Virus record (IMG/VR): IMGVR_UViG_3300046373_000033
Span: 1-39,158 of that record
Length of the DNA stretch: 39,158 nucleotides
Direction: 5' to 3' (one strand)
Source of the DNA: a virus
The number at the start of each line of letters is the position of its first letter. Positions within the stretch are counted from its first letter, which is position 1. The notes beneath the pieces are model-generated. The model made no database searches. It saw nothing but the letters and a program-made list of their open reading frames with translations, and was not told the DNA's origin. Made by a program: the position numbers and the translations under genes. Positions 2,103-39,158 of this stretch are shown piece by piece.

Positions 2103-2122
2103 GTATTTGCGACAAGGATACC

Positions 2123-3876: not shown

Positions 3877-3884
3877 GAGACAGC

Positions 3885-5605: not shown

Positions 5606-5922
5606 TGCCAAATACAAAGCCTGTAGTAGTGGATGACCGTAGAAAGCCCCGGTTCGATATGACGATCAATCTAGGCCATGTGATTACGTTGATTGCCTTT
5701 GTGATTTCAGGATTTGCATTCTGGAATTCCGTTGATAAGCGGATCTTGGTGCTTGAGGTTGCCAATAACAGCCAGAGAGAGCGGGATATCAATCAGGACT
5801 TGTCGAGCAAGGAGAAATTCACCGAAGTTCGGGAGTCTCTCCGAGACTTGCGCCGTAGCGTGGATAAGCTTGCTGACGCCATCACAGATCAACGAGTTAT
5901 AACAGGGAGTGTGAAGAAATGA
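5605..5922 (+). CDS. Membrane-anchored coiled-coil protein of the lysis cassette (holin/antiholin or i-spanin-like topology)
   Basis: One hydrophobic helix (LGHVITLIAFVISGFAFW) followed by a charged helical tail. Overlaps the endolysin start. Confidence 0.5.
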   Translation: MPNTKPVVVDDRRKPRFDMTINLGHVITLIAFVISGFAFWNSVDKRILVLEVANNSQRERDINQDLSSKEKFTEVRESLRDLRRSVDKLADAITDQRVITGSVKK

Positions 5923-6335: not shown

Positions 6336-6865
6336 TGGACCCATTAACGATTGCCTTGGCGCTGGCATCGCAATTTGCGCCCGCTCTCATGAAGCGTCTA
6401 ACGAATAGCGAGACAGCAGGCGCGGTCACCTCGCAGGTTTTCGATATCGCTCGTACTGTCACCGGAAAGGCTGATCCTAATGACATGCTTGATGCAATCA
6501 AGGCGGACCCAACTGCCGCCATGGAGTTTCAAAAGCAGGCGATGGCATTGGATGCAGAACTTGAAAAAGCTTATCTGGCTGACCGCCAGAATGCCAGGGC
6601 AATGCAAGTCGCCGCCTTGGGCCAGGACGACAAGCTTTCAAAGCAGTTCGTCTATTATTTCTCCGGCGCATGGTCTTTGTTTGCCATGGGGTATTTCTCA
6701 TTCGTGACGTTTCATGAAATACCAGCAACCGGGCAGCGCACAGCGGACACGATACTTGGCGTTCTGATTGGTTCTATCCTTGGCTCAATCTTCCAATATT
6801 TCTATGGGACAAACCGACAGTCTCAAGTTAAAGACGCAACCATTAGCAACCTGACAAAATCCTGA
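6335..6865 (+). CDS. Putative holin, GTA-type 3-TM holin family-like
   Basis: Track ORF 6269..6865. Start placed at ATG 6335 (TGATG overlap with the endolysin stop). Hydrophobic segments FVYYFSGAWSLFAMGYFSFVTF and ILGVLIGSILGSIFQYFYG. Overall pattern recalls Pfam 'holin of 3TMs, for gene-transfer release' (from memory). Confidence 0.55.
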   Translation: MDPLTIALALASQFAPALMKRLTNSETAGAVTSQVFDIARTVTGKADPNDMLDAIKADPTAAMEFQKQAMALDAELEKAYLADRQNARAMQVAALGQDDKLSKQFVYYFSGAWSLFAMGYFSFVTFHEIPATGQRTADTILGVLIGSILGSIFQYFYGTNRQSQVKDATISNLTKS

Positions 6866-6872
6866 GGTGACT

Positions 6873-7184
6873 ATGTACGGCATCAGCGACGACATGATCT
6901 TTAACGAGACACGAGCCGCGCTGAATGCCGGTCAGCCGCAGGCTATCGTGTATGCGGCTGTCTACAATAAGGCGCTCCAAGACATTGCCCACATTGCCGC
7001 ATGCATGGAAGTTGTTCCGACAGCAGGCAATCGCCTGCCTCAGAAGTCGTCCATGGAGTGGATGCGTAGGCAGCTTGAAGATGAGTGGAATAAGGAGTTC
7101 ACCAGGAAGAAGCTGGCGGAAATGAAAGTGATCCGAGAATCAGGCGAGCTAGATACCCGGGCGGTGCGTAGACTTGAGGGTTGA
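6873..7184 (+). CDS. Hypothetical protein, last gene of the lysis block (no TM segment or lipobox seen)
   Basis: GAGG at 6864-6867, 5 nt before ATG 6873. 103 aa. Confidence 0.55.
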   Translation: MYGISDDMIFNETRAALNAGQPQAIVYAAVYNKALQDIAHIAACMEVVPTAGNRLPQKSSMEWMRRQLEDEWNKEFTRKKLAEMKVIRESGELDTRAVRRLEG

Positions 7185-7266
7185 TGGTTGGCCGCTACGC
7201 GCTGCTTAGTCCGCTCCCTACTGAAAGGTTCTGTGGCGGATACCCATTACAGACTCAGTTCTCACC

Positions 7267-7354
7267 ATCAAGTAAGCCGATTTGCTCCGCCATCTACTTA
7301 ATTCGATGTACCCATGGTCAGCGATGGGCCTCACTGCAAATCAGCTTACTTGAT
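7267..7354. repeat. Inverted repeat pair A in the attP-like region (19 bp arms, 1 mismatch)
   Basis: ATCAAGTAAGCCGATTTGC at 7267-7285. The reverse complement of 7336-7354 is ATCAAGTAAGCTGATTTGC. Confidence 0.85.
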
Positions 7355-7445
7355 AGTGCCGGTCTTTCCCGGCTGTCCATGATGGTTTTGCACCGCGCAC
7401 TTCAGCAGATATTTCACGGCCACGCTACGGTCGTTATCCAAAATC

Positions 7446-7541
7446 ATCAAGTAAGCGGCCTTTAACGTAAACTTGCTGACTCACGGGATTGAACCCACCT
7501 GTTGCCAACCGTTCCATCAGATTAAAGGCAGCTTACTTGAT
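7446..7541. repeat. Inverted repeat pair B in the attP-like region (19 bp arms, 1 mismatch). Shares the 11-mer ATCAAGTAAGC with pair A.
   Basis: ATCAAGTAAGCGGCCTTTA at 7446-7464. The reverse complement of 7523-7541 is ATCAAGTAAGCTGCCTTTA. Confidence 0.85.
7474..7495 (-). other. Candidate attP core resembling a tRNA 3' end (T-loop, T-stem 3' strand, acceptor 3' strand)
   Basis: The minus strand reads GGTTCAATCCCGTGAGTCAGCA: a GTTCAATCC T-loop-like string, then CCGTG, then AGTCAGC and A. It sits centrally between the arms of pair B. Confidence 0.3.
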
Positions 7542-7925
7542 GCGCCCATTCCTGAGCGCTGCTAGTTACGGGTTCTAGCGTCCACCGTATTTTGTGGCCG
7601 GTTAAAGCCTGATGCCGGAGCAGAGCAGGTACAGCGCAATTCTACGCCGGTACGTGGGCCTTTACAACAAGGAAAAGGTGTGGCGAAATTTTGCCACGCA
7701 ATAGCGAATAACCTGCGCTGCATGCATGTTGCACCAAGAAAATATCCTTTGTTTACAAGGCTCTTACATCTGTGCGCCATTTGCGCATTATGTGTCGGGT
7801 CCAGCGCGTAGTGCTTTAATTATTCGATTGCATAATTCAATATAAGCCTTACGAATCAATGGCTTGTGTTATGTCGCCGCAAGAAATTACGGCAACATAA
7901 TTTCTATTGGTGTGGAAGAATTCTG

Positions 7926-8888
7926 TCATTTTATTTTTAGAATTGCAGCCTCCATGCTTTCCACCGAAAGGTGTGAATATCGCTGAGTGCTACGGCTATC
8001 CAGATGCCCGAGTACTTTTCCGATAGTGTACAGGTCCACGCCAGCATTGATCATTGATGAGGCGGTACTGTGCCGGATATCATGGAAAACAAGGTTATTC
8101 AGACCAACCGAGTCCATTGCCTCCCTGATCTTGGTTTGGATCCAGCGTTTCTTAAAGCCTATCGGAAACTGCCTCAACGAAGACAGCGCCTTGTGATGGA
8201 CCGGCACAAGTCTTGTCGCCCCGTTCTTCACGACCTTTCCCGGTAGCAGAATTCCCCGCGTTGTAATCTGCGACTCGTTGCCAACGCTGATGATTTCACT
8301 CAGGCGCATTCCAGTGTAAAAGCCCAGCCGCAGTACGGCGCGAGACGGGCGATTCTTGCATGCTCTGGCAATCATGATCATTTCGCGGCGCGTGGCGTAG
8401 ACCTGCCTCTCATTGGAAACGGCTGGCATTGCCACACTCACAGTCCCATTGCCGAACCCGTGTTTCTCGTAGGCATAGTTGATTGCAGACCGGATGTAGG
8501 AGAGCTTGTTCTTGATACTACCCGGCGCAAGCTCGCCCCGCTCATCGTTCATGTATTCCCTAGCGACGGCTGGAAGCTGATCAATATACTTGCCATCGTA
8601 GTATGCGAACAGCCGTGCCAACTCCTTCTTTACGCCATCGCCGTTCTTTAACTCAGGACAGCGATAGCGGTAGTACAAGTCCACAGCATCGGAAATCAGG
8701 TGCCTTTTAGGCCCTGTATTAGTCGCATTTTCGTAGAGGCGGTCTGTTTCTGCTTTTGAGTACGCTTGGGCCTGGGAGCGAGACCATCCTTTCGGAAGGA
8801 GCTTAGTAGCCCTGACCCTTGTTCCATTGATAACCTTTGAGAACTCAAAGCGCCAACGACCCTTTGCACTATCGAAATATGCTGACAT
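7926..8888 (-). CDS. int: Tyrosine recombinase (phage integrase)
   Basis: FYTGMRLSEI (catalytic R), and VFHDIRHSTASSMINAGVDLYTIGKVLGHLDSRSTQRYSHL (H-x-x-R, H, Y). N-terminal GRWRFEF arm-binding-type motif. Confidence 0.9.
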   Translation of the reverse strand: MSAYFDSAKGRWRFEFSKVINGTRVRATKLLPKGWSRSQAQAYSKAETDRLYENATNTGPKRHLISDAVDLYYRYRCPELKNGDGVKKELARLFAYYDGKYIDQLPAVAREYMNDERGELAPGSIKNKLSYIRSAINYAYEKHGFGNGTVSVAMPAVSNERQVYATRREMIMIARACKNRPSRAVLRLGFYTGMRLSEIISVGNESQITTRGILLPGKVVKNGATRLVPVHHKALSSLRQFPIGFKKRWIQTKIREAMDSVGLNNLVFHDIRHSTASSMINAGVDLYTIGKVLGHLDSRSTQRYSHLSVESMEAAILKIK

Positions 8889-9040
8889 GATTTTCTGTAT
8901 TCTTCAATGTGTTGTGGTTCAAACCGGATGCATTTCAATCCGTACCGGCAGCAGGGGATCGGGCCTTTAGGGGCGGCCAGGTCGTACATCGTTCGTTTGC
9001 TGACTCCCAGAATGTCAGCCGCTTGTTGTGCGTCGATCAT
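8696..9040 (-). CDS. xis: Excisionase-like HTH protein (MerR/AlpA-type). Only the first ~53 aa look like the domain.
   Basis: MIDAQQAADILGVSKRTMYDLAAPKGPIPCCRYGLKCIRFEPQHIEEYRK. The frame stays open for 64 further codons across the int start. Confidence 0.6.
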   Translation of the reverse strand: MIDAQQAADILGVSKRTMYDLAAPKGPIPCCRYGLKCIRFEPQHIEEYRKSCQHISIVQRVVGALSSQRLSMEQGSGLLSSFRKDGLAPRPKRTQKQKQTASTKMRLIQGLKGT

Positions 9041-9042
9041 TC

Positions 9043-9339
9043 TTAATTTCCCCCCTTGCCATTTCTGTGTATATCCTCTCGCATCCTTTGCCTGGAATCA
9101 GCAATCCTTTTTCGTTCTCGCTGCACAATCAAAGCAAAGATAGGAGCTGAAATTGGTAGCAATATCAAAGTTATGATTCGGACAAACGGCGCAACGAAGT
9201 ACAAAAATGATGTTTTGAAGCTTTCCCACATATCCGTAATTTCGTGGAGACGTAAAGGCCATTGGATCAAACCCTTTGCAACTATGCGTAGAGATTGCAA
9301 ATAGGTCATGTCTTTATTGAAAACGTCTCGATCAATCAT
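9043..9339 (-). CDS. Small membrane protein, unknown function
   Basis: Track ORF 9043..9345 starts at TTG. ATG 9339 follows GGAGGG. Hydrophobic FLYFVAPFVRIITLILLPISAPIFALIV. AT-rich gene. Confidence 0.55.
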   Translation of the reverse strand: MIDRDVFNKDMTYLQSLRIVAKGLIQWPLRLHEITDMWESFKTSFLYFVAPFVRIITLILLPISAPIFALIVQRERKRIADSRQRMREDIHRNGKGGN

Positions 9340-9341
9340 CC

Positions 9342-9578
9342 TCAATTCCCTCCCTGTTCCTGCTTTGGCAAAACACGCTCAAGAATTTCGTTGAGTACAT
9401 CGATCCTAATTAACAATTCGTTTTTTTCTTCTCCTTGGTGATCTAAATTCATCTTCAAATTGTTGAGTTCTTTTCCAATTTGCATCGCCGTCATTGGCTC
9501 GCCGTTTTTGCATACAACGCCGGCTGTTAGCTTGTATGCTTCCTTCCACGAAAAAAACTTTCTATATTGATTACTCAT
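9342..9578 (-). CDS. Hypothetical protein (78 aa)
   Basis: ATGA overlap with the upstream HD hydrolase gene. AT-rich. Confidence 0.55.
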   Translation of the reverse strand: MSNQYRKFFSWKEAYKLTAGVVCKNGEPMTAMQIGKELNNLKMNLDHQGEEKNELLIRIDVLNEILERVLPKQEQGGN

Positions 9579-10087
9579 TTCTCGTCTCCCTGTTCCTGCA
9601 AAACGGTTTGTGAGCGCGCCAGTGCGAGTAAGCGTGGATCTGCCTTGGTCATAACATCCAGCAGTAGCCGTTTTTCCTCAAGGTATGTGACGGCGAACTT
9701 AGGATCGTGCATGACGATGCTCGATGTGTTGCTAATCAAGTCCGCGCACTTGACAGACTGTATCCACGCGGAACAGGAAGCCAAGCGTTCGCGGGACAAC
9801 TGCTTACGTTCCGAACGGTTACCACTTTCGATATCGGAAAGTCCAGAAACACCAATGGCTACATGCACGCCAAATTCATCTTCAATGGTTGCTAAACTAA
9901 CCCCACAATCTTCGACGCAGTCGTGTAGCCAAGCAGTTGCCAACACAACTTGGCCGAGGTTGAGCGTTGATACGATCCCCGCCACTTCCGCCAAATGATC
10001 CGAGTACGGATTGCCGGTGTACTTTCTAACTTGATCTTTATGCGCCTCGCGGGCAAACATCATTGCCCTGTATGCCAAATCACTCAT
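9575..10087 (-). CDS. SpoT/RelA-type HD-domain (p)ppGpp pyrophosphohydrolase (small alarmone hydrolase)
   Basis: AHKDQVRKYTGNPYSDHLAEVAGIV ... ATAWLHDCVEDC matches the SpoT hydrolase signature (AH.GQ.RK.G.PY..H...VA ... LHD..ED). No synthetase domain. Start chosen at ATG 10087 (GGGGGA upstream); 10099 or 10180 are possible. Confidence 0.8.
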   Translation of the reverse strand: MSDLAYRAMMFAREAHKDQVRKYTGNPYSDHLAEVAGIVSTLNLGQVVLATAWLHDCVEDCGVSLATIEDEFGVHVAIGVSGLSDIESGNRSERKQLSRERLASCSAWIQSVKCADLISNTSSIVMHDPKFAVTYLEEKRLLLDVMTKADPRLLALARSQTVLQEQGDEK

Positions 10088-10295
10088 CTTTTCCCCCATG
10101 TTCACACTCACTGCACCCTGGATCACTCTGCCACGCCGTGTATCGACAGTTCGTTGAATTGACGTGCTGTACCTCCACATCGTTGCGCACCCTGATAGGC
10201 GTCATGTACTGGTCAAACGCTTCCTTGTAGCCGTCCTGGGCGATGTAGGAGGGCTTGAAGGGTGGGCGGTTGTGGCATTGGTATTCGCGAGTCAT
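10080..10295 (-). CDS. Hypothetical protein (71 aa)
   Basis: ATGA-coupled to the upstream gene and overlaps the downstream start by 8 nt. Confidence 0.5.
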   Translation of the reverse strand: MTREYQCHNRPPFKPSYIAQDGYKEAFDQYMTPIRVRNDVEVQHVNSTNCRYTAWQSDPGCSECEHGGKDE

Positions 10296-10675
10296 TTACC
10301 CTCCTGCGCTGCGAGCAATGCCCTGGCGAACTTGATTACATCGTTTTTATAGGCCCACTCAGAGTTGTAAGCGGACCTCATAGGAAGGCCCGCAGCCATA
10401 GCCACCTCTTCAATCCGCTCATCCGTCATTGGCTGCGGTGCGGGTGGCGTAGGGGCAGGTTCGAGCGCAAACAAATATCGAAGCCAATCCTGCGCGCCAC
10501 CTTTGGTCAGATGGCCGTTTTCCTTTGCGGCCCACTCAGGCCAGCAGCCATCAAACCCTGAGCATTCCAGTTGATCGCGCATTTTCTTGACGGTGGTGGA
10601 ACTCCCGCCATACAGCATAAGAAATGATCGCACTGCACGGTTCTCGCCGTCCTCTTTATCAATCAATTCACTCAT
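10292..10675 (-). CDS. Hypothetical early protein (127 aa)
   Basis: Track ORF 10292..10759. ATG 10675 overlaps the upstream stop by 8 nt, the same junction style as at 10080/10087. Confidence 0.55.
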   Translation of the reverse strand: MSELIDKEDGENRAVRSFLMLYGGSSTTVKKMRDQLECSGFDGCWPEWAAKENGHLTKGGAQDWLRYLFALEPAPTPPAPQPMTDERIEEVAMAAGLPMRSAYNSEWAYKNDVIKFARALLAAQEGK

Positions 10676-10877
10676 GCTTATCTCCTGCGCAGATATCAAG
10701 GAAGTCATCCCGGCATGCTTCGCGCAATTCTTTCCAGGTCTCTTTGTTAGCAAACTCATGGGTAAATACTGGGCGGCCTAACATATTTTCCGCATAGCCA
10801 TGGATGTCTGAGAATGGACCGCATGCGATACCTGTAAATGCGCCGATGATGGCGGCTTGTTCGTTTGTCAGTTTCAT
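10668..10877 (-). CDS. Hypothetical protein (69 aa)
   Basis: ORF track. ATGA-coupled with the DUF551-type gene. Confidence 0.55.
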   Translation of the reverse strand: MKLTNEQAAIIGAFTGIACGPFSDIHGYAENMLGRPVFTHEFANKETWKELREACRDDFLDICAGDKHE

Positions 10878-11443
10878 GCTGGCTTATCTCCTGCGTCGGT
10901 TGAGTCGATGGGTGGAAGATTTGGAAACGGCATCCAGTGCGTGACGCTACAGACGTGATGCACTTCACCGAACCCTGTTTCATATTCCACGTAACGCCAT
11001 TGACCATCAAAGCAAAGTCTAGCCTCAACACAATAATCCGTGGGGAATGGATACACCAGACAGTTACCCTCTTGAACCGGCAACCGCTCCTTCACGCTTA
11101 CCCATTGCTCGGCGGGTGGGGTGGGTTGAGCGAATAGCGGTCGGATTTGAAAGTTCTCCCGTGGGTACAACATCAAAACCTCGGCGGCTGCTTTGTCGCA
11201 GATGCTCCAATCCGACCATCCCTCGCCATCACCGGCAAACCATCGAGTTTGATACGCTTGCGGCTCCTGCCCTTGCTCGGCTTGCAGGGCGGCGAACGCA
11301 TCGAGCATTGCCGCGATGTCTTCACCAGTCACCGACAACGTGGAGTCCTGATCGATCCGCCTTCGAACCCATGCGGCCATGTTGCGCACGTTTTCAGGCG
11401 ACAGCTTGTTCGGTGCTTTGAGCGCTTCGAATGTGGGGTTCAT
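10874..11443 (-). CDS. DUF551-domain protein
   Basis: C-terminus WVSVKERLPVQEGNCLVY...DGQWRY...VTHWMPFPNLPP fits the DUF551 pattern (W.SV.D.LP...VTHWMPLP). Start placed at ATG 11443 (AGAGGA 6 nt upstream). Confidence 0.7.
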   Translation of the reverse strand: MNPTFEALKAPNKLSPENVRNMAAWVRRRIDQDSTLSVTGEDIAAMLDAFAALQAEQGQEPQAYQTRWFAGDGEGWSDWSICDKAAAEVLMLYPRENFQIRPLFAQPTPPAEQWVSVKERLPVQEGNCLVYPFPTDYCVEARLCFDGQWRYVEYETGFGEVHHVCSVTHWMPFPNLPPIDSTDAGDKPA

Positions 11444-27691: not shown

Positions 27692-29864
27692 CGAACACAA
27701 ATCTATCATCGAGGTAGCGAAGAAGCGCTATGAACAGGCGAAATCCGCCTATTCATCGACTCGCGCCCAGGCGGTGGAAGATACCAAGTTCGCTTTGGGT
27801 GACAGTGACAACAACTGGCAATGGCCTGAGCGTGAGCGTATGGGGCGCGTCAATGCGCAAAAGGTTTGCTTGACAGTCAACCTGACAGCGCAGCATTGCA
27901 ACCAGATCATCAACAATATCCGTCAGAACCGCCCACAGTGCCGTGTGCTTCCTGTAGACAATGGCGCAGACAAAAAGACAGCAGAGATCATGGCTGGCTT
28001 GATCCGCAACATCCAATCCTCATCCAATGCCGATGACGCTCACGATACGGCTGCTGAGCACTCGATCTACGGTGGCGAGGGGTACTGGCGCATCCTGACG
28101 GAATACGAGTCTGAAACGTCGTTTAAACAGCGCATTCGCATCGCCACCATTCCTAACCCACAGATGGTCTACATTGATCCATCATCTAAGGAATTAGATC
28201 GTTCTGACGCTGACTGGTGCTTTATCTTCGAAGACATCAGCAAGGAACAGTGCAAGCGCGATCACAAGGGTATCGATCCTTCATCCTGGCAATCAGAGCC
28301 TTCGGGATGGGTAGCGCAGGATACCGTGCGTCGTGCTGAATACTTCTATGCGGAATATACGCCTGACACTGCCTACCTGATCAGCAATGGCACAGAGGAA
28401 GGCGTAAGCGTTCTGAAGAGTGATTACGACAAGGAGCCTGAGCGCTACGCCATGGGCATGATCACCAACGAGCGCCCGACACTGGTCAAGCGCTGGAAGT
28501 GGTGCAAGATCCTTGGCGGGCATGACAAGCCGCTTGATGAGAAGGACTGGCCCGGTGCTTACATGCCTGTTATCTCAGTCGTCGGCAAGCAGTTGAACGT
28601 CAATGGCGAAGTGGTGATTAAGGGCCAAGTGCGTGACCTGAAGGATCAGGCCCGCATGGTCAATTACTCGTACAGTGAGGCGATTCAAACTGTCGCATTG
28701 CAGAACAAGATTCCGTACATCGCTGCTGCTGAAGCCATTGAAGGGTACGAGGACGCATGGAAGGCTGCGAACACTTCCAACGCTTCATACCTACCTTACA
28801 ACGCATGGGATGAAAACGGGAATCAAATTCCTAAGCCCGAACGCCAGCAGCCTTCCGTTCTGCCAGCAGCCCAGGTGCAAATGCTCCAACTGTCCACGGA
28901 GCAGATGCGCGCAGCCAGCGGTCAGCAGAATGCCAACTTCGGCATCAAGTCTGAGGCGCAGTCTGGCGTAGGTATCAAGCGCCTGAAAGAGCAAGGCGAA
29001 GTGGCCACGTTCCACTTCCCTGACAACCAAGTACGAGGCCTGCGGTACGAGGCAAAGGTGCTGATTGATCTAATCCCAAAGATTTACGACACAAAGCGCG
29101 TTGTGCGTATTTTGGGGATGGATGGCAAGGACGAAAAGGTCACTCTCGATCCAGAAGCGCCCGCATACGAAGAACAGTTCACCGACGAGGATATCAATAA
29201 GATATTCAACCCGATGCTTGGTATGTATGACGTGGTGATTGACACCGGCCCGAGCTATCAAACGCAGCGCCAGGAAGCAGCCGAAGCACTCACAGAACTG
29301 TCGAGCAAGAATCCGCAGCTCATGCAAGTGGCTGGCGACATCATCATGCGGTCCTACGACTTCCCGATGGCTGATCAGCTTGCTAAGCGCCTTGAGAAGA
29401 CGCTTCCTCCTGGATTGCAGGATCAGAAGGGCCAGAAGCCATTGCCGCCAGAGGTGCAGCAAAAGCTCGAGCAGGATCAGCAGACCATTCAGCAGATGGA
29501 TGAAGCTATCCAGAAAATGCAGCAGGAATTGGAAAGCAAGGAAATCGAGCGCCAAAAGCTTGAGATTGACCGATTCAACGCTGAAACCAACCGCATGAAG
29601 GCTCAAGGTGAGTTGCAGATCAAGGCTGCCACTCTCAACAAGCCTGATGCCCCGCAAGCGATGGACAACACGGTTGATGACCACATCCTGGCTATCAAAA
29701 AGCAAGAGACTGACCAATACCGCGCTGAGACAGACCGACTCAAGCTTATCCAAGTTGCCAAGCCAGAAGGACTCGCTGAGGCAGTAGAGAGCGAATTCGG
29801 CCTGAGCCTGCCGCATGAAGAAGAACCAGAACCCACCGCCACGAAACCAGAAGGAAACGAATAA
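27684..29864 (+). CDS. Portal protein, P22-like, with a long C-terminal coiled-coil (barrel) region
   Basis: 726 aa. N-terminus AKKRYEQAKSAYSSTRAQAVEDTKFALGDSDNNWQWPE... is portal-typical. The C-terminal ~130 aa are Q/E/K-rich helix. Confidence 0.88.
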   Translation: MADEHKSIIEVAKKRYEQAKSAYSSTRAQAVEDTKFALGDSDNNWQWPERERMGRVNAQKVCLTVNLTAQHCNQIINNIRQNRPQCRVLPVDNGADKKTAEIMAGLIRNIQSSSNADDAHDTAAEHSIYGGEGYWRILTEYESETSFKQRIRIATIPNPQMVYIDPSSKELDRSDADWCFIFEDISKEQCKRDHKGIDPSSWQSEPSGWVAQDTVRRAEYFYAEYTPDTAYLISNGTEEGVSVLKSDYDKEPERYAMGMITNERPTLVKRWKWCKILGGHDKPLDEKDWPGAYMPVISVVGKQLNVNGEVVIKGQVRDLKDQARMVNYSYSEAIQTVALQNKIPYIAAAEAIEGYEDAWKAANTSNASYLPYNAWDENGNQIPKPERQQPSVLPAAQVQMLQLSTEQMRAASGQQNANFGIKSEAQSGVGIKRLKEQGEVATFHFPDNQVRGLRYEAKVLIDLIPKIYDTKRVVRILGMDGKDEKVTLDPEAPAYEEQFTDEDINKIFNPMLGMYDVVIDTGPSYQTQRQEAAEALTELSSKNPQLMQVAGDIIMRSYDFPMADQLAKRLEKTLPPGLQDQKGQKPLPPEVQQKLEQDQQTIQQMDEAIQKMQQELESKEIERQKLEIDRFNAETNRMKAQGELQIKAATLNKPDAPQAMDNTVDDHILAIKKQETDQYRAETDRLKLIQVAKPEGLAEAVESEFGLSLPHEEEPEPTATKPEGNE

Positions 29865-31714
29865 TGGCAGTCATCGATAACGTAGCGGCTGGCACTCAGT
29901 CATCTGCACACTTTGTCCCAGCCGGAACGATCATCACTGTCACTCCTTCTGCGGGTGCCACGGCAACGGTTATGTACACGGTGCAGGACCGCAATGCGAT
30001 CACTAATAACGTTGCCACTTACCTTAATTGGCCGAAGGGTGCGGTTACTTCGAGTGCCAGCGATCTAGCTGCAAGGTCGATGCGAATTAGGGTGGTGGCG
30101 ACTGGCGGAACAGTGCAATTAAGCACAAATACAAATCCGACAAATGTGGATTTGGCTCCGTATTTAGCTGATTTTGGCGGTAGTGCGAAATATGCTACAG
30201 ATTCAACTGGTGCAGTGGTTGGCTTGACCGCGCCGGGAGGCAGCATTATCGGATTTGGCGGCGGCGGTTATGTCCTGCCAACTGCGAGCGCCACTACACT
30301 AGGCGGGATCAAGATAGGCACTGGGCTTTCCATCGATGGTACGGGCACCGTAACAGCCTCTGGTGGCGGCGGCTCCGCCATCAATCAGGACAGCACCTTT
30401 ACGCTCACCGATTGGGTCAACAACAACCGTGACACTTACCCTGTCATGACATCTGGCGCACGTCCGCGCAGTAAAGCGCTCAAGCGCGACCCCGCAACCC
30501 GCCGCCTGGTTCAGTTCGACACGCTTGCAAATACTTACTCGACGCAATCTGGCCTGTCTGATGTGACGACGAACGACGCAATGCTTGGAACAAGCGCGGT
30601 TCAGTTGCAGACAACCAGTCTGACCACGCACTTTGTTGCGCCTACCAATGCAAACGTACTGACGACGCCTATCAATGCAACTGGCGCGATCATGAAGTTC
30701 TGCTACAAGCCTATCAATCCGTCGCCAGTGGGGACTATTTCCACTTTTAACTTCCAATTGTTTTCTTCCGGAACACCAACAGCGCCAGGATCAAACTACC
30801 ACGAGTGGGGCGGTTCCGGCATCGTTCAGACGATTACAGCGAATGGCGGCAATGAAGGGCGCTGGCAGGGTTATGGTGTTGCCATTTCTCAGTTCAGCGC
30901 GGTAGGCACAGGCGCTGACCTGACTGCAATCACTTGGGGTCGTATCGTTGTACGCACCACAAGCGGAACGTGGACTATCCAACTCGGATACATTGACATT
31001 GTGCCCAATCGCCTGACGAAGGCCAAAGTCATCCTTGGCTTTGACGATCTGCACGACGCACAGTGGGAATACGTTTTGCCGCTGATGGCTCGCTATGGCT
31101 TCCCTGGCGTGATCTATCCTGGCGCTCTAGGACAGACCGCCGGCAACAGCGCATCGTGGACGCCAAAGCGCATCCAAAACGCAAATGACTTTGATGACTG
31201 GCAGATTGGCTCGCAGGCGTATTCCACAGAAGCAAATACCCTTGACGGCTTTACGGAAGCGCAACGTGTAGCAGACTTCCAAAAACTGGCATCGCTGCAT
31301 TCCGGCTTAGGTGTGCAGGGCGGCATCGACGGAAGCTATTTCAGCAATGTCGGCTTCGTTGACATGCAGGTGTGGCCGACTTTCCGCAAGTTCTACCGCT
31401 CAATGCGAATTTTTAAGAACGGCGCTCCTGCGGCTGTTCAGACATTCCCGCCTGCTGATCCGCATCTGTGGTGGTGCATGAACGGCGTCACCTTTAACGA
31501 TTCGACAAACGGCGATAGCTTGGTTGCTCATGCGCAGTTGGCAATCACGCACAAAGGCGTTGCTGAGTTTGCTTGGCATAACGACCTTGGGAATGCAGGG
31601 ACGGTAACAGCGGGTCAAACGGGCTTCAAGCAACTTCTGGCGTTCTGCGATGCAAATCGATCATTGGTTGACGTGGTCACCAAAGACGACCTATATCTTT
31701 CATATGGAGGCTAA
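29864..31714 (+). CDS. Fibre-like virion protein with a C-terminal polysaccharide-deacetylase-like domain (tentative)
   Basis: Fibre motif YVLPTASATTLGGIKIGTGLSIDGTGTVTASGGG. C-terminal part KAKVILGFDDLHDAQWEYVLPLMARYGFPGVIY resembles the NodB TFDDG block; other NodB motifs were not confirmed. Confidence 0.45.
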   Translation: MAVIDNVAAGTQSSAHFVPAGTIITVTPSAGATATVMYTVQDRNAITNNVATYLNWPKGAVTSSASDLAARSMRIRVVATGGTVQLSTNTNPTNVDLAPYLADFGGSAKYATDSTGAVVGLTAPGGSIIGFGGGGYVLPTASATTLGGIKIGTGLSIDGTGTVTASGGGGSAINQDSTFTLTDWVNNNRDTYPVMTSGARPRSKALKRDPATRRLVQFDTLANTYSTQSGLSDVTTNDAMLGTSAVQLQTTSLTTHFVAPTNANVLTTPINATGAIMKFCYKPINPSPVGTISTFNFQLFSSGTPTAPGSNYHEWGGSGIVQTITANGGNEGRWQGYGVAISQFSAVGTGADLTAITWGRIVVRTTSGTWTIQLGYIDIVPNRLTKAKVILGFDDLHDAQWEYVLPLMARYGFPGVIYPGALGQTAGNSASWTPKRIQNANDFDDWQIGSQAYSTEANTLDGFTEAQRVADFQKLASLHSGLGVQGGIDGSYFSNVGFVDMQVWPTFRKFYRSMRIFKNGAPAAVQTFPPADPHLWWCMNGVTFNDSTNGDSLVAHAQLAITHKGVAEFAWHNDLGNAGTVTAGQTGFKQLLAFCDANRSLVDVVTKDDLYLSYGG

Positions 31715-34916: not shown

Positions 34917-35318
34917 ATGACTGTCACACTCAATCGCGCTTATATGGGCCTGCTGTCCGGCTCTACCGTCAACCTTTCAACCAACGTCGAAAATGCTCTG
35001 ATCGCTCAAGGTCTGGCATCGTCGGCACTCGCTGCCAACATCACGCCGGGCCCGTACACCTACAATGGTAACGATGGCCGTGCTGGCATCCCCGCTGGAT
35101 CCAGCTCGGTGACCATCACCAATGCTCTGGTCGATGCCAATTCGAAGATCTACGCCACGGTCGCTCAGGCTACGGCTGACACCGGCTTTGTCCGTGTTGA
35201 ACGTGTCGTGCCTGCTGCTGGCTCGTTCACGATCTACGGCACGGGCAATGCCGCTGCAACCACGCTGGTTGATTGGGGTATCACCAACAACCTCGGCCTT
35301 GTCATCACCAATCCTTAA
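34917..35318 (+). CDS. Hypothetical head-associated protein (possible decoration protein, by position)
   Basis: 133 aa, directly after the coat gene. A GC-rich hairpin follows (35325-35347, no T-run). Confidence 0.5.
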   Translation: MTVTLNRAYMGLLSGSTVNLSTNVENALIAQGLASSALAANITPGPYTYNGNDGRAGIPAGSSSVTITNALVDANSKIYATVAQATADTGFVRVERVVPAAGSFTIYGTGNAAATTLVDWGITNNLGLVITNP

Positions 35319-35351: not shown

Positions 35352-36041
35352 ATGACCACAGCTATTGATTTCATCAACCGTGCGTTAAGATCCACGGGCA
35401 TCCTTGCGTCTGGCGAATCGGCTGATGCGGCAATGGCTGCTGATGCGTTTGTGACGCTCAATGACATGCTTGATTCATGGTCAGTGGCGAATATCTTCCT
35501 GTATTGCATGGTTGATGTCCCACTATCTGCCACGCTGAATCAGGGGCAATACACCATTGGACCGGGCGGTAATTTCAACACTGTCAGGCCAACGACAATC
35601 CAGAGCATGACCTATCAGGTAGGCGAAATATCCTACGATGTAACTCCTCTGACTCGAGATCAGTTTTCCAGCATTGGCGTGAAGTCGAATGGTGGCATTC
35701 CTGCATGGTTCAACTATGAGCCGACATTCCCACTTGGCGTAATCTCGATCTATCCAGTTCCAGCCACAGCAGGTACTTTGCTTGCCCAACTGCCACAGCA
35801 ATTCACGCAGTTTGCTACGTTGACGACCAATATCAACTTCCCACCAGGGTACAACGAAGCTATCCACCTCGGACTGGCCGTCATGCTGTGCAATGAGTTC
35901 AAGATTGAGCTAACACCACTGTTGAAGGCATCGGAGCAGCGGGCATTCAAACGCATCAAGCGCGCCAACGTGCAGATACCGACCCTCTCTATCCCAGGTG
36001 AGTTGATCACTTACGAATCGCTGCCATACGGGTATTTCTGA
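35352..36041 (+). CDS. Head-to-tail adaptor, P22 gp4-like N-terminus
   Basis: IDFINRALRSTGILASGESADAAMAADAFVTLNDMLDSW parallels P22 gp4 LVRAALRKLGVASDATLT...AVDDLEAMMAEW (from memory). Confidence 0.55.
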   Translation: MTTAIDFINRALRSTGILASGESADAAMAADAFVTLNDMLDSWSVANIFLYCMVDVPLSATLNQGQYTIGPGGNFNTVRPTTIQSMTYQVGEISYDVTPLTRDQFSSIGVKSNGGIPAWFNYEPTFPLGVISIYPVPATAGTLLAQLPQQFTQFATLTTNINFPPGYNEAIHLGLAVMLCNEFKIELTPLLKASEQRAFKRIKRANVQIPTLSIPGELITYESLPYGYF

Positions 36042-36874
36042 TGAAACTGACCGTCACGTATGGAAAGGGATTTGAAGTAGGGCATGCAAGCAAAGTGGAT
36101 TTCCTTGAGTCTGAATTTCTCAAGATGTCTCAAGTTGAATGCCCTGTGGTCCATCGGTTTGGCCCTGGAATCTACATCCGTGAGGTAACTGTTCCAGCCG
36201 GATCGGCTGCAATAGGACACAAGCAGCGGTTCGCTCAGATGAATGTATTTCTGAGGGGGCGAGTCACTGTCGTGAATGACGATGGCACACATACAGAACT
36301 GGTCGCGCCAATGACTTTTGTCGGGCCACCTGGCCGAAAGGTTGGATACGTTCATGAGGATATGGTTTGGCAGAACGTTTACGCTACTGACGAAACAGAT
36401 ATCGAGAAACTTGAGTCTATGTTTCTGGATAAAAGTGAAGTCTGGCAAAATTCACAGCCAAAGCTAATTGCCGTGGATTATTCGGCGGATTTCAAAGAAG
36501 CTCTAAAAGAATTCGGATTTACTGAGCAACAAGCACGCGATCAATCAGAAAATGAATCTGATCAAATTCCTTTCCCGCATGGTTCCTACAAAGTGGCAGT
36601 AGCGGACTCTCCAATCGAAGGTAAGGGTTTATTTGCCACAGCATCAATTCTTTACAAAGAAATAATCGCTCCAGCAAGAATCAATGGATTTCGGACGCCA
36701 GCAGGGCGATTTACGAACCACTCACCAACGCCGAATGCCAAGATGGTATGGATCGGCTCTGACATATACCTGATGGCATTAACCGCAATTCATGGATGCT
36801 CAGGCGGAATCATGGGCGAAGAAATAACAATCGATTACCGCGACGCGCTGCGTTTGCAAATCAAGGAGCAATAA
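36041..36874 (+). CDS. Two-domain protein: N-terminal cupin-like beta-barrel plus C-terminal SET-domain methyltransferase
   Basis: SET signatures IEGKGLFAT, RFTNHSPTPNA (RFINHSCxPN-like) and GEEITIDYR (ELxxDY-like). N-terminal VHRFGPGIYIREVTVPAGSAAIGHKQRFAQMNVFLRGRVTV. Confidence 0.7.
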   Translation: MKLTVTYGKGFEVGHASKVDFLESEFLKMSQVECPVVHRFGPGIYIREVTVPAGSAAIGHKQRFAQMNVFLRGRVTVVNDDGTHTELVAPMTFVGPPGRKVGYVHEDMVWQNVYATDETDIEKLESMFLDKSEVWQNSQPKLIAVDYSADFKEALKEFGFTEQQARDQSENESDQIPFPHGSYKVAVADSPIEGKGLFATASILYKEIIAPARINGFRTPAGRFTNHSPTPNAKMVWIGSDIYLMALTAIHGCSGGIMGEEITIDYRDALRLQIKEQ

Positions 36875-37927
36875 ATGTCAGGTATCGCAACGGCCGTAGT
36901 TGCAAGCTCAGTTATTGGCGGGGTCGTGTCTTCCAGCGCAGCCAGTAAAGCAGCAAATGCGCAAACACAGGCAGCAGACCAGGCTAACGCCACTCAGCAA
37001 GCCCAATACGATCAGACCCGTGCTGACAACATGCCCTGGATGAATCGTGGCAATGCTGCTGGTGACCGCCTGAGCTACCTTCTTGGAACTGGCGGCACAA
37101 ACGGCAGCGCCGCACCAGGGTCATCAATATTCGATCAAGCGGGCTATGACGCAGCCTTGAAGGCTTATCAGAATCAACAATCGCCAGCACAGACTCAATC
37201 CCAGGCTGCGAACCCATACGCAAACCGATACCAATTTGTCAGTGATGCCGAGTTGGATCGAATGGATGCGAGCCAGTTTAAACAATACCAAGACGCTTTA
37301 AATGGCGTCTCGAATACTCAGGCTGCAACCACTTCCGGCACACTTGCCGAGCCTACGCGGGACCAGTTCACCACTACTGTGGCTGGCACGAATGGCTCGA
37401 CCACCGATCCGCAATACGGCTCCCTCCTGCGTAACTTTACTCAGGATGACCTCAATAACGATGTCGTCTACAACTCGGGACTGCAATTCGGCCTGGATCA
37501 GGGCACACGAGGCATCAACAATCAAGCGGCAGCTAGTGGGAGCCAACTTTCAGGCGCGACTCTTAAGGCTCTGACGAAGTACGGCAATGACTATGCATCG
37601 ACCAAGGCTGGCGATGCCTACAACCGATTCCAGACAAACAAAAACAGCAACTACAACATGCTGGCCGGTGTCGCAGGTACAGGTCAGACGGCTAATTCGT
37701 TGCTGGCAAGCACCGGCGCAAATACCGCCAACCAAGTAAGCCAGAACCAACTTGCCGCAGGAAACTCTCGTGCTGCAAGCTCTATCGGCTCTGCAAATGC
37801 TCTTACCAACAGCATCAGTTCCGGGTACAACATGTATCAAAATAACCAGTTGGTGAATGCTCTGTCAAACAAGACTGCAGGTGTTCCACAGCTTCCCGGC
37901 GTAACTGGCTGGGTATCACAGGGATAA
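36875..37927 (+). CDS. Ejection/internal virion protein (first of three)
   Basis: N-terminal hydrophobic segment GIATAVVASSVIGGVVSSSAA, then a Q/N/A/S/T-rich sequence. ATG is directly adjacent to the upstream TAA. Confidence 0.6.
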   Translation: MSGIATAVVASSVIGGVVSSSAASKAANAQTQAADQANATQQAQYDQTRADNMPWMNRGNAAGDRLSYLLGTGGTNGSAAPGSSIFDQAGYDAALKAYQNQQSPAQTQSQAANPYANRYQFVSDAELDRMDASQFKQYQDALNGVSNTQAATTSGTLAEPTRDQFTTTVAGTNGSTTDPQYGSLLRNFTQDDLNNDVVYNSGLQFGLDQGTRGINNQAAASGSQLSGATLKALTKYGNDYASTKAGDAYNRFQTNKNSNYNMLAGVAGTGQTANSLLASTGANTANQVSQNQLAAGNSRAASSIGSANALTNSISSGYNMYQNNQLVNALSNKTAGVPQLPGVTGWVSQG

Positions 37928-37930: not shown

Positions 37931-39158
37931 ATGGCACTCGATCCAAACATCATCCTTCAAGCCAAGCCAGTGCAGTTTGATAACCCACTGAATGCTCTTG
38001 CGCAGTACTCGCAGATTCAAAATGCTCAGAATCAGAACGCACTTTCTCAATACACAATTGGTAAAGCCAAGCGTGATGATGAGCGCTCTACTGCGGTGCA
38101 AAACGCGTTGGTATCAACCGGAGGGGACGCTCAAGCAGGCTATCAAGCATTGGCAAAGCAAGGCTATTTAAAAGAAGCTCTGGATCTTCAAAAGTCGCAG
38201 CTAGATCAAGATAAGACAAGATCTGAAGTTGATAAAAATCGTGCTTCGACAGCTACATCAAATTATGACCTGCAATTAAAGAAAACTGAAACTATTGGGC
38301 AAACACTTGGCGCATTGCTGAAAACTCCCGATGTTGGTCCGCAGCAAATTTCTCAGTCATTGCAGCAACTTGCAGGTTCAGGGATCATCACGCCAGAACA
38401 AGCTCAGCAAGCAATTCAAGGAATCCCACAAGATGCAGCGCAGATTCCAGCGTATTTGCAGCAGCATCAAATGGCGGCCATGAAAACTGCTGACCAGCTA
38501 AAGTACACCATGCCGGATGCAAACGCTCAGCTTAACGCCCAGACCTCACGCCAAAACAACGCCGCCACAAATGCCACCTCATTGGCTACGAACGCCAACA
38601 CGGTCAACAATGCTGCGCAGACGGCAGGAATGGTTGACAGAAGGGCTGCGGCAACGGCTCAAGCCAAGACGGCTCCTAAACCATTGCCAACTGCAGCTCT
38701 TAAAATGCAGCAGGATTCTTTAGATGCGATTGGCACTGCCTCAGGAATCAATTCCGACTTGTCATCTGTTGGTAAACAAATCACTGATGGCAAGCTTGAT
38801 TTCGGCCTTTTTTCCAATGCGAAAAACAGCACTTTGAATACGCTTGGCCTGTCAACCGAAGGAAGTCGAAACTTCCAGAGCTTCAAGTCAACATTGGAAA
38901 AGCTTCGGAATGACTCTCTGCGCCTAAACAAGGGTGTTCAAACCGATGGCGACGCTCAACGCGCATGGAACGAGCTGTTCACGAACATCAATGATAAGCA
39001 GGTTGTTCAACAACGTCTTGATGAAATCCAGCGCATTAACGAGCGTGGCGCTACGTTGCACCAACTCAATGTTGACAACATCCGTAACAACTACGGAGCA
39101 GAACCGCTTGATACCTCTGGGTATAAGTCGCAGCCTGCCACGGTAGGCGCAAACGTTG
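37931..39158 (+). CDS. Ejection/internal virion protein (second of three), 5' part. The ORF runs off the window end and continues in frame at 128..300 (about 466 aa after de-duplication).
   Basis: ATG 37931 follows AGGGA. I translated 37931-39158 by hand and found no stop (MALDPNIILQAKPVQFDNPLNALAQYSQIQNAQNQ...). It is absent from the ORF track because it has no stop in the window. Q/N/A-rich like podovirus E-proteins. Confidence 0.7.
   Translation, partial: MALDPNIILQAKPVQFDNPLNALAQYSQIQNAQNQNALSQYTIGKAKRDDERSTAVQNALVSTGGDAQAGYQALAKQGYLKEALDLQKSQLDQDKTRSEVDKNRASTATSNYDLQLKKTETIGQTLGALLKTPDVGPQQISQSLQQLAGSGIITPEQAQQAIQGIPQDAAQIPAYLQQHQMAAMKTADQLKYTMPDANAQLNAQTSRQNNAATNATSLATNANTVNNAAQTAGMVDRRAAATAQAKTAPKPLPTAALKMQQDSLDAIGTASGINSDLSSVGKQITDGKLDFGLFSNAKNSTLNTLGLSTEGSRNFQSFKSTLEKLRNDSLRLNKGVQTDGDAQRAWNELFTNINDKQVVQQRLDEIQRINERGATLHQLNVDNIRNNYGAEPLDTSGYKSQPATVGANV
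39032..39158. repeat. Terminal duplication, copy 2 (identical to 1-127)
   Basis: Same 127-nt string as the window start. An overlap of exactly 127 nt is what a k=127 de Bruijn assembler leaves on a circular contig. Confidence 0.9.

Follow-up and report, generated by a model that had tools for sequence, protein, structure and literature searches.

Why should a temperate, short-tailed phage carry a gene that joins a cupin-like barrel to a SET methyltransferase domain, and why should this gene lie directly ahead of the proteins that eject the phage DNA? The gene was found in a stretch of 39,158 nucleotides, positions 1 to 39,158 of the IMG/VR virus record IMGVR_UViG_3300046373_000033, which we refer to as the window. 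It was taken from the list of open reading frames at positions 36041 to 36874, encodes 277 aa plus a stop codon and, like every feature described below, is on the + strand. The encoded protein is matched over its full length by PHROG 34170 (E=4.9e-87), a family annotated as of unknown function. The original prediction had placed the gene between a gp4-like adaptor and the first ejection protein and had described it as stop/start-coupled on both sides. Both descriptions were confirmed. The gp4-like head-tail adaptor (35352 to 36041; phrog_12985, E=6.8e-45; phrog_637 'head-tail adaptor Ad3', E=3.2e-10) ends in a TGATG stop/start overlap read from the sequence at 36039 to 36043, where the adaptor TGA and the cupin-SET ATG have 1 nt in common, and the same overlap is present in the closest relative, L114. 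At the other end, the cupin-SET TAA (36872 to 36874) is followed with zero gap by the ATG of ejection protein E1 (36875 to 36877). The AAGGAG Shine-Dalgarno sequence for E1 (36863 to 36868) lies within the 3' end of the cupin-SET ORF, the whole junction spanning 36863 to 36877.

The genes that follow form an ejection block. E1 (350 aa; 36875 to 37927) matches phrog_598 'DNA ejection' (E=3.7e-24) and has a hydrophobic N-terminus in common with VvAW1 gp03 and RSK1 ORF14. E2 (466 aa in all) is an open frame that runs from 37931 to 39158 and over the window end to position 300, completed across the 127-bp terminal assembly overlap that joins the window ends. E2 had no match in PHROG or Pfam, and we infer its role as an ejection protein from its gene position; it is 96% identical over 201 aa to the gene at the same position in L114 (455 aa). 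The stop of E2 and the start of E3 overlap as TAATG. E3 (561 aa; 300 to 1985) matches phrog_26400 'DNA ejection protein' (E=7.5e-37), and beyond it lies the gp10-like tail hub (head closure Hc3; 2057 to 3526; phrog_578, E=5.4e-97).

The C-terminal part of the protein had been read as a SET domain with three hallmark blocks, for which profile and structure searches for the fold and the catalytic Tyr had been proposed. The blocks are present (IEGKGLFAT, aa 192-200; RFTNHSPTPNA, aa 223-233; GEEITIDYR, aa 259-267), and the SET-only family profile, Pfam SET and Foldseek delimit a minimal SET domain at aa 181-277 (36581 to 36871). Searching the PDB with the SET-only family profile returned 149 sequences at E<=1, and the best 60 of the 149 were all SET-domain methyltransferases. 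MLL1 was the best match (2.3e-11), and vSET (6e-8), EZH2, NSD2 and SMYD3 were matched too. An AlphaFold (AF2) model of the whole protein was obtained with a pLDDT of 89.9 and a pTM of 0.85, and Foldseek with this model retrieved the SET domain of MLL1 (1.3e-4), vSET (2.2e-4; TMt 0.64, rmsd 3.3) and EZH1/2 at a probability of 1.0. The Pfam SET profile (PF00856) scored the full-length protein at 21.1 bits, just below the cutoff of 22.4, and the SET domain scanned alone at 24.1 bits, above the gathering score of 22.4. It was matched by 25/26 family members, and the match spans only model positions 61-104 of 105. NCBIfam and PADLOC scans gave no meaningful match. Together, the MLL1 profile match, Foldseek and Pfam support the predicted fold.

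Alignment to MLL1 placed SET motif I (G194-K-G196, the GxG of the SAM pocket; 36620 to 36628) on HGRGLF and motif III (N226-H227-S228 of RFxNHS; 36716 to 36724) on RFINHS. Motif IV (ELxF/YDY; E261 to Y266, 36821 to 36838) was aligned to EELTYDY, with Y266 on the invariant Tyr of MLL1. The Ile in EEITIDY occupies what we take to be the F/Y-switch position of SET enzymes. Conservation was calculated over 143 divergent representatives that are 37-58% identical, and was 95% for G194, 98% for G196, 95% each for N226 and H227, 98% for E261 and 96% for Y266. Judged from these 143 sequences, the SET catalytic residues are under purifying selection. According to the model, the C-terminal half is a SET domain that is apparently intact. 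Its SET-I insert is nearly gone, with ~10 residues between the conserved blocks compared to ~45 in MLL1 and 32 in vSET; in canonical SET enzymes, SET-I helps to form the lysine channel and substrate groove. At ~95 aa the module is below vSET in size and is, to our knowledge, among the smallest SET modules known. A GCxGG insertion ahead of motif IV is specific to the cupin-SET family.

The N-terminal part had been described as a small double-stranded beta-barrel and the whole protein as a SET domain fused to a cupin-like domain. The model, Foldseek and the profiles support both folds, and by Foldseek on the model the barrel is a genuine small cupin. An N-terminal helix and a small RmlC-type cupin barrel, assigned by Foldseek and PHROG, make up aa 1-135 (36041 to 36445). 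The structures matched by this half were 2fqp, 3d82, 8awp, 3lag and ectoine synthase (E=1.6e-4 to 5e-4, TMt 0.5-0.65), with a probability of 1.0 for 2fqp, 3d82 and 8awp (E about 2e-4). Two PHROGs, phrog_12032 (E=1.6e-32) and phrog_24280 (E=8.8e-25), match the N-domain only. The Pfam Cupin_2 profile did not match the window protein; phiAp1_43 reached 17.4 bits with this profile (cutoff 27.2), and the double-cupin relative P0267 has a precomputed PF07883 match. V36, Y45, R47, E48, G59, G73 and G98 are kept in 9/9 aligned cupin homologs, the cupin-only ones included. The ligand positions of the cupin vary across the family: H60, Q62, Q66 and H105 of the window protein fall in the region of the HxH...E...H metal motif, the first two recur in close relatives together with H66, and RSK1 and SnaP-R1 have HxHxH at 62-66. 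A JmjC-like or other specific cupin enzyme was also considered; the best 50 fold matches are generic small cupins, and the metal ligands are variable. No cupin homolog was found in solved structures, either by sequence or among the 50 best fold matches listed, and solved structures therefore lend no support to a virion location. Podophage virion reconstructions fall within the structure set that was searched.

The two domains are joined by a conserved helical linker (aa 136-180; 36446 to 36580), defined from the AF2 model and from conservation. The model has four short helices within aa 121-169, and the linker pLDDT is 84-92. D150, Q168, D174 and P179 of the linker are invariant among 50 close relatives, and this is the segment of the gene with the lowest GC content (41%). 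Vibrio phage FGH is without SET and retains a linker remnant like that of PH1.

The cupin-SET protein has 1701 homologs, and clustering at 50% identity with E<=1e-30 gave 304 clusters. The family occurs in 551 IMG/VR contigs, and the hosts of its prophages are environmental Proteobacteria, mostly Burkholderiales. The SET module is found in only about five deposited phages, and a megablast search with the region gave no match among deposited phages. Cultured carriers are Rhodoferax phage P26218 (gp30) and Pseudoalteromonas phage PH1 (gp49). The proposed survey of related podophages showed that, as a rule, E1 comes directly behind cupin-SET: across 80 IMG/VR loci the genes run adaptor, hub, cupin-SET, E1, and the gap between cupin-SET and E1 is 0 or 1 nt in 53/62 related loci. 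The hub lies upstream of the ejection block in these relatives and downstream of it in this phage. The whole block of cupin-SET, E1, E2 and E3 is thus on the other side of the hub compared to the 80 relatives, so the gene has moved as one unit with the ejection genes. Median identity across the same loci was 57% for cupin-SET, 39% for the adaptor, 34% for E1 and 31% for the hub, a comparison that is biased because the loci were picked by similarity to the cupin-SET protein.

Cupin-only homologs in SnaP-R1, phiAp1, RSK1 and VvAW1 sit between tail tubular B or hub genes and internal-virion or DNA-transfer genes. The cupin is the ancestral occupant of the slot upstream of the ejection genes in P22-like and T7-like podophages. 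On the cupin tree the presence of SET switches at least 7 times, by loss or exchange, and the cupin is always retained. SET is an accessory part of the cupin protein. The architectures among the best 120 matches are cupin-only or cupin-SET, plus one double cupin, and on this basis we rejected the idea that the cupin carries cargo domains of many kinds.

Is the gene a recent arrival? The original prediction had noted that it is AT-richer than its neighbours and had taken this as the mark of an acquired gene. The composition itself was reproduced. The gene has 46.5% GC compared to 53.4 +/- 2.3% for the structural genes and is in the lowest 5% of 834-nt windows, and the hand counts of 60-nt lines (25 and 26 G+C in the gene, 33 in the next gene's first complete line) were obtained again. 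This copy also has a modest extra deficit at third codon positions (GC3 43%, compared to 57% in structural genes and 50-54% in other ejection genes). Both values speak for a recently acquired moron, a foreign AT-rich gene that was inserted into the late operon and does something unconnected with the virion. The family as a whole speaks against this interpretation. The gene is AT-richer than its flanks in 72/79 related loci across a GC range of 32-63%, and the deficit is confined to codon position 2 (-11 points, in 70/70 loci; -0.2 points at position 3), and hence reflects amino-acid composition. The slot and the linkage to E1 are conserved over 80 loci and in P22-like and T7-like phages. In L114 the gene is in the same place, nucleotide homology is continuous over both borders, and the amino-acid identity of 88% is inside the neighbours' range of 78-96%. 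The gene is also without a promoter or terminator of its own, no promoter-like or terminator-like site having been found on the + strand in or beside it. A recent horizontal insertion was rejected on account of the conserved synteny, the position-2 deficit and the continuous L114 homology; a moron origin is largely refuted, and we consider it very unlikely. Databases suggest another name. Of the two PHROGs matched by the N-domain, phrog_12032 is labelled 'short tail fiber protein' and phrog_24280 'tail fiber adhesin', and RefSeq homologs bear these names. Taken literally, they would make the protein a short tail fibre or a tail-fibre adhesin for host recognition. The fold, however, is a compact cupin plus SET with no fibre architecture, and the gene lies ahead of the ejection genes, away from fibre or spike genes. 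The sole paper that we found with the label, on R8W gp34, offers a predicted model, contains no mass spectrometry and describes its own proteomic analysis as limited. The label seems to have spread by annotation transfer; a fibre function is highly improbable, and the label of the cupin family should be treated as unverified.

We tentatively favour, at somewhat less than an even chance, the reading that cupin-SET is an accessory enzyme linked to the ejection proteins, a SAM-dependent protein methyltransferase whose substrate is an ejection or internal virion protein. The analysis shows the folds of both domains, the conservation of the motifs, the linkage of the genes, how the family is distributed and how SET was lost; on this reading we infer a catalytically active enzyme, a docking role for the cupin and a phage substrate. 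The gene is built from two parts with different histories, the cupin and the SET domain, and it is expressed as part of the late operon, its translation being coupled to that of the adaptor on one side and of E1 on the other. The cupin may bind or escort a component of the ejection or virion machinery. Since SET-I is missing, substrate presentation must come from elsewhere, and the SET domain would rely on the cupin and the linker for it. Methyl groups would then pass from SAM to a lysine (a histidine is less likely) of a phage protein docked by the cupin. The docked protein would be one of the ejection proteins or of the other internal virion proteins, and it would receive the methyl groups before packaging or in the course of it. 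Such a modification would be conditionally useful and not essential, which fits the repeated loss of SET. A comparison of lysines, which among the virion proteins covered E1, found no conserved lysine that distinguishes the E1s after cupin-SET from the E1s after cupin-only genes. The E1s downstream of cupin-SET are lysine-poor, at about 2%, and E1 as an obligate substrate marked by a SET-specific conserved lysine was rejected. Further points count against the favoured reading. The loss of SET-I removes a region that contributes to the lysine channel, so that activity is not guaranteed, and a host target that is itself conserved would also be in keeping with a protein more conserved than its structural neighbours.

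The latter point leads to the possible, less probable reading that the protein is packaged and co-ejected, with the cupin anchored in the capsid and the SET domain entering with the DNA to methylate a conserved host protein early in infection. Candidate targets would be silencers associated with the nucleoid, defence proteins, and factors of translation or of the envelope. The gene belongs to the ejection block and moves with it, and the block of related phages also encodes enzymes, among them VvAW1 gp01, a giant DarB-like protein, and the RSK1 transglycosylase. The protein that fills the equivalent slot in T7, gp13, bears the annotation of an internal virion protein. Conservation of the cupin-SET protein greatly exceeds that of the surrounding structural proteins, as would be expected if its target were a conserved host protein, and the repeated loss of SET fits a host-dependent benefit. 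There is also a parallel in the chlorovirus PBCV-1, which 'encodes and packages' vSET, an enzyme that acts in the immediate-early phase (PMC7019647). However, the literature search found no proteomic study that places a cupin or cupin-SET protein in virions, and no signal or cleavage motif was identified in the protein. The prophage hosts are environmental Proteobacteria, which offer neither a histone target nor a known candidate substrate. P22 has gene 14 in this slot, with the annotation 'head morphogenesis' and not that of an ejected protein.

A further reading dispenses with catalysis: the truncated SET would bind a peptide or a SAM ligand with no methyl transfer, and the protein would be an assembly or structural factor. 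In favour of this are the near-complete absence of SET-I, the full-length score just under the Pfam SET threshold and the dispensability of the SET half in many lineages. In addition, gp13 and gp14, the analogues in this slot, have been described as proteins of scaffolding or morphogenesis. The GxG, the NH and the Tyr of ELxxDY, however, are kept in 95-98% of divergent members, which is hard to explain without catalysis, and stand-alone SET proteins of ~100 aa recur in other viruses with target-normalised TM-scores of 0.71-0.75. We consider a non-catalytic SET unlikely. We would also give only slight weight, by analogy, to a more elaborate proposal, in which the mini-SET is brought to its target by the cupin and either pre-methylates lysines of the phage's own ejection or internal virion proteins as a shield or is ejected along with the DNA to methylate a nucleoid-associated silencer or a defence protein. 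The shield might protect virion proteins after entry from lysine-directed host attack, such as Bil-type ubiquitin-like conjugation or proteolysis. This would resemble Rickettsia, which methylates OmpB and so escapes ubiquitylation. If true, either mechanism would be the first protein-lysine-methylation mechanism of counter-defence or host takeover described in bacteriophages; we know of no earlier one.

The original prediction was aware of no characterised system of this kind, and our literature search likewise found no paper on one. Searches on phage SET proteins, the cupin protein, virion proteomics of the relatives and P22 gp14 found nothing specific. Hardly any work exists on protein lysine methylation in phages, and little is understood of the accessory proteins that belong to podophage ejection modules; the cupin-SET family is one such group, widespread in environmental phages. 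Its presence in cultured phage-host pairs (P26218 and PH1) makes its function directly testable. The alignments further suggest that SET-I may be dispensable when another domain is fused, which bears on the minimal requirements for SET catalysis.

Among known systems, vSET (PBCV-1 A612L) resembles the cupin-SET protein in being viral and in having a very small SET domain without pre-SET and post-SET zinc clusters, and the GxG, NHS and ExxxxY motifs are common to both. vSET is a minimal viral SET, a stand-alone histone H3K27 methyltransferase of 119 aa from a eukaryotic virus. In contrast, the SET domain described here is shorter (~95 aa, with ~22 fewer residues between the conserved blocks) and sits behind a cupin in a bacteriophage ejection module, with no histone to act on. 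As an enzyme packaged in the virion and active at the start of infection, vSET is a precedent for a virion-linked SET. The MLL/KMT2 enzymes are the closest solved sequences, and their SPIHGRGLF, RFINHS and EELTYDY align to SPIEGKGLF, RFTNHS and EEITIDY. They differ in having ~45 residues (SET-I) between the blocks compared to ~10 in cupin-SET, and the MLL SET includes a post-SET zinc motif and depends on the WRAD proteins as partners. Prokaryotes also encode SET lysine methyltransferases. Legionella RomA/LegAS4, Chlamydia NUE and Bacillus anthracis BaSET are cellular or secreted SETs aimed at eukaryotic histones, and Methanosarcina Go1-SET acts on MC1-alpha, a case in which a prokaryotic DNA-binding protein is a SET substrate. 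In contrast to cupin-SET, none of these is known to be fused to a cupin or to lie in a phage virion operon.

In gene position, the nearest counterparts are T7 gp13 (PF11090) and P22 gp14 (PF11039), small proteins annotated as internal virion, scaffold or head-morphogenesis proteins. Their genes occupy the same slot, after tail adaptor, nozzle or needle genes and with the trio of ejection or internal-virion genes directly downstream. We rejected homology between these proteins and the cupin, for which hhalign gave probabilities of 0.3% and 0.1%, respectively; nor is there a common Pfam family. With values below 1%, both are positional analogues only. Stand-alone homologs of the cupin occur in many podophages, and those of phrog_12032 and phrog_24280 include RSK1 ORF13, VvAW1 gp04, SnaP-R1 gp38 and phiAp1_43. 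They are 31-38% identical in the N-domain, reach a Foldseek E of about 1e-10 in BFVD and occupy the same slot ahead of ejection genes, but they are without the SET half (140-193 aa compared to 276-306 aa). They are labelled as tail fibre, a label without support in the evidence found. The P1 DarB-type methyltransferase-helicases are very large, virion-delivered proteins that act on DNA, and in VvAW1 the last protein of this block is a giant one of the DarB-like kind. They resemble cupin-SET as modifying enzymes carried with or among ejected proteins, whereas cupin-SET is small and is a putative protein methyltransferase.

The 277-aa ORF at 36041-36874 (+) lies exactly where the original prediction had placed it and encodes a cupin-SET protein, in which an N-terminal cupin is joined by a helical linker to a C-terminal SET domain. 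Its start codon overlaps the upstream stop as TGATG (36039-36043), its TAA (36872-36874) directly precedes the ATG of the next gene, and the AAGGAG ribosome-binding site of that next gene (36863-36868) is embedded in the 3' end of the ORF. No promoter-like or terminator-like sites were found on the + strand in or beside the gene. The three SET blocks and the beta-rich N-terminal sequence reported earlier were both confirmed in the ORF.

The first 127 bases of the window are identical to bases 39032-39158, showing that it is a circular assembly of a complete phage genome of 39,031 bp. The phage is a temperate P22-like podophage with an integrase (7926-8888, -; PF00589), assigned large terminase, portal and scaffold genes, and a P22-type coat protein (PF11651, 3.4e-37); no deposited phage close to it at the nucleotide level was found. 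The gp4-like adaptor (35352-36041) precedes the cupin-SET gene, which is followed by the ejection proteins E1 (36875-37927, phrog_598), E2 (37931 across the window end to position 300, assigned by position) and E3 (300-1985, phrog_26400), and by the gp10-like hub (2057-3526, phrog_578). Directly 3' of the portal gene, a 616-aa protein without a family match (29864-31714) shares its first 119 aa at 81% identity with the start of a 1172-aa protein in the same position (228-3746) of L114, the closest relative locus, and the rest is unaligned. Receptor-binding or cargo proteins typically keep their N-terminus while the body is exchanged; the 616-aa protein appears to follow this pattern, and its portal-scaffold position would be unusual for them. 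The 133-aa protein directly after the coat gene (34917-35318) has a near-threshold match to PF24146, the K1 capsule lyase C-terminal domain (26.3 bits, cutoff 27), and could be a head decoration or fibre element; the weak PF24146 match in L114 falls on a different small protein (83 aa, 4467-4718). Two small ORFs adjoining the integrase (9043-9578, -) have a GC content of 39-41% against 51.6% for the genome and no Pfam match, and are better candidates for genuine morons than cupin-SET is.

PHROG 34170, of unknown function, matches the cupin-SET protein over its full length (4.9e-87). Pfam SET scored 21.1 bits on the whole protein (cutoff 22.4), covering only the C-terminal half of the Pfam model. 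The window SET domain scanned alone reached 24.1 bits, above the gathering score, and Pfam SET matched 25 of 26 family members. A SET-only family profile matched 149 PDB sequences at E<=1, and all 60 of the matches listed are SET-domain methyltransferases (MLL1 best at 2.3e-11, vSET 6e-8). Together, these matches make the SET assignment of the C-terminal half solid. An AlphaFold2 model built from an alignment of 50 relatives (pLDDT 89.9, pTM 0.85) comprises an N-terminal helix, a beta-barrel (aa ~36-114), four short helices (aa 121-169) and a beta-rich C-terminal domain (aa 181-277). The PDB structures matched by Foldseek, all with probability 1.0, fall into two groups: small RmlC/cupin_2 proteins (2fqp, 3d82, 3lag, 8awp and ectoine synthase) and SET domains (MLL1, 1.3e-4; vSET, 2.2e-4, TMt 0.64; EZH1/2). 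Among 143 representatives of 50%-identity clusters, conservation was 95% for G194, 98% for G196, 95% for N226 and H227, 94% for P231 and N232, 98% for E261 and 96% for Y266. The equivalent residues of canonical SET enzymes make up the SAM pocket and supply the catalytic Tyr.

The protein thus has the sequence, fold and catalytic motifs of the SET family and departs from it at SET-I: the GxG and NHS blocks are ~10 residues apart, compared to ~45 in MLL1 and 32 in vSET, so the SET-I insert is essentially absent. There is also no post-SET cysteine cluster, and a GCxGG insertion before motif IV is specific to the family. According to a chlorovirus review, vSET is the smallest histone methyltransferase (PMC7019647); the SET module here, at ~95 aa, is smaller still. 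In BFVD, stand-alone SET proteins of ~100 aa from viruses overlap well with it in structure, indicating that mini-SETs recur in viruses. These include A0A6J5M2C6 (97 aa) and A0A481YSP5 (100 aa), such genes being carried by uncultured phages and giant viruses; BFVD also holds a 971-aa "SET domain-containing protein" from an uncultured virus (A0A218ML49). SET modules may be commoner in viral proteomes than the literature suggests.

The N-terminal half is a cupin by its modelled fold; it had no match to a Pfam profile, the cupin ones included, and no sequence homolog of solved structure was found. V36, Y45, R47, E48, G59, G73 and G98 are identical in 9/9 aligned cupin homologs, including those without SET, and the classical metal-ligand positions vary (H60, Q62, Q66 and H105 in the window protein; H66 in close relatives; HxHxH in phages RSK1 and SnaP-R1). 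Codon 66 (36236-36238) encodes Gln in the window protein and His in at least 90% of 50 close relatives. In the classical metal motif this is where the Glu ligand sits, so metal binding in the window copy may be altered or absent.

The family is widespread, with 1701 matches in a collection of 5.8 billion proteins, 3750 clusters at 50% identity with E<=1e-3 (304 of them with E<=1e-30) and 551 IMG/VR contigs, many of 34-40 kb. Only ~5 deposited phages carry it (Rhodoferax P26218, zth2-2, the Manatee Spring podophages and Pseudoalteromonas PH1), and 185,579 species genomes yielded 23 loci, mainly in Burkholderiales with some in Gammaproteobacteria. In 80 related IMG/VR loci (L011-L090) the gene order is adaptor, hub, sometimes a small ORF, cupin-SET and E1, with a cupin-SET-to-E1 gap of 0 or 1 nt in 53/62 cases. 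In the window phage, and likewise in L114, the hub follows E3, and the cupin-SET-E1-E2-E3 block lies between adaptor and hub. The block has therefore moved as a single unit relative to the hub and was left intact by the rearrangement. In the same loci, which were selected on the cupin-SET protein, median identity to the window protein was 57%, compared to 39% for the adaptor, 34% for E1 and 31% for the hub.

Cupin-only homologs of 140-193 aa occupy the same slot in other podophages, both P22-like (RSK1 ORF13, Vibrio phage VvAW1 gp04) and T7-like (SnaP-R1 gp38 and phiAp1_43, flanked by tail tubular B on one side and the internal virion proteins on the other). The best 120 matches of a cupin profile search comprised cupin-only and cupin-SET architectures and one double cupin. 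A neighbour-joining tree built on the cupin domain shows at least 7 changes in SET presence; SET-positive PH1 falls with a marine cupin-only clade, and Vibrio phage FGH keeps a PH1-like linker remnant without SET. The simplest history would be an old fusion followed by repeated SET loss and perhaps some exchange. The core function seems to lie in the cupin, with SET as an accessory. In VvAW1 (L006, 5498-7333 and beyond), a giant "DarB-like antirestriction" gene (record positions 19-10941) closes the same ejection block, and relatives thus load large enzymes into the ejection module.

The original prediction took the gene to be acquired on account of its AT-richness. The AT-richness stands: the hand counts of 25, 26 and 33 G+C per 60 nt were reproduced, and the gene has 46.5% GC against 53.4 +/- 2.3% for structural genes, within the lowest 5% of equal-sized windows. 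The acquisition does not. In 72/79 related loci, whose background GC runs from 32% to 63%, cupin-SET is lower in GC than its flanks, and the deficit sits at codon position 2 (-11 points, in 70/70 loci; -1.6 at position 1 and -0.2 at position 3), so it mirrors amino-acid composition rather than foreign origin. The proteins of neighbouring genes are richer in residues with G or C at the second codon position, such as Ala and Gly. L114 (Logan run SRR30224757) carries the gene at the same position, ATGA overlap included, 88% identical to the window copy (neighbours 78-96%), and a single 4.9-kb nucleotide alignment spans both cupin-SET borders. Against this family-wide deficit and unbroken homology, a recent moron is very unlikely. 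What remains of the acquisition argument is a GC3 of 43% in the window copy (other ejection genes 50-54%, structural genes overall 57%), which may reflect allele exchange or drift.

The cupin-SET gene is translationally coupled to the ejection genes and moves with them, its cupin is always kept and its SET repeatedly lost, and the linker is structured and conserved. The catalytic motifs are intact in sequence and under purifying selection; a non-catalytic SET domain seems improbable. PHROGs carrying the labels "short tail fiber" and "tail fiber adhesin" match the protein in its N-terminal 115 aa only, but the "short tail fiber" label is unsupported for the cupin, and a function read from it is scarcely credible. 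Instead, the cupin would tie the protein to the ejection or virion machinery, and the SET half, without a substrate-binding insert of its own, would methylate what cupin and linker present. Our leading, tentative reading is that late in infection the enzyme uses SAM to methylate ejection or internal virion proteins of the phage itself, a modification that would be conditionally useful. No lysine conserved specifically in E1 of SET-positive phages was found, and E1 is only ~2% lysine. This simple test, which covered E1, weakens it as a substrate candidate and leaves E2, E3, portal, hub and coat as candidates. The main rival, possible although rather unlikely, is that the protein travels in the virion, is co-ejected and then modifies a conserved host protein by methylation, by analogy with chlorovirus PBCV-1, which packages vSET (PMC7019647).

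In the model phages, the slot of the cupin is held by T7 gp13 and P22 gp14. Homology of the cupin to either was rejected; both are positional analogues of the cupin-SET protein, not homologs. The first 29 residues of T7 gp13 (L009, 3308-3724) and P22 gp14 (L010, 3912-4367) are 31% identical (hhalign E=0.008, probability only 4.7%), and by eye both give the impression of a GNAT-like C-terminal pattern. If that pattern is real, the pre-ejection slot of the model phages would also hold a lysine-modifying fold. Our literature search found no paper on family members, and some copies are already named "SET domain-containing protein-lysine N-methyltransferase" by NCBI. We consider the interest moderate to high because an abundant, conserved and uncharacterised family is open to experiment, tempered by a domain already flagged in databases and a putative function. 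Compared to known SET enzymes, we rate the cupin-SET protein as a predicted methyltransferase that is new in its minimal form, its fusion and its genomic context.
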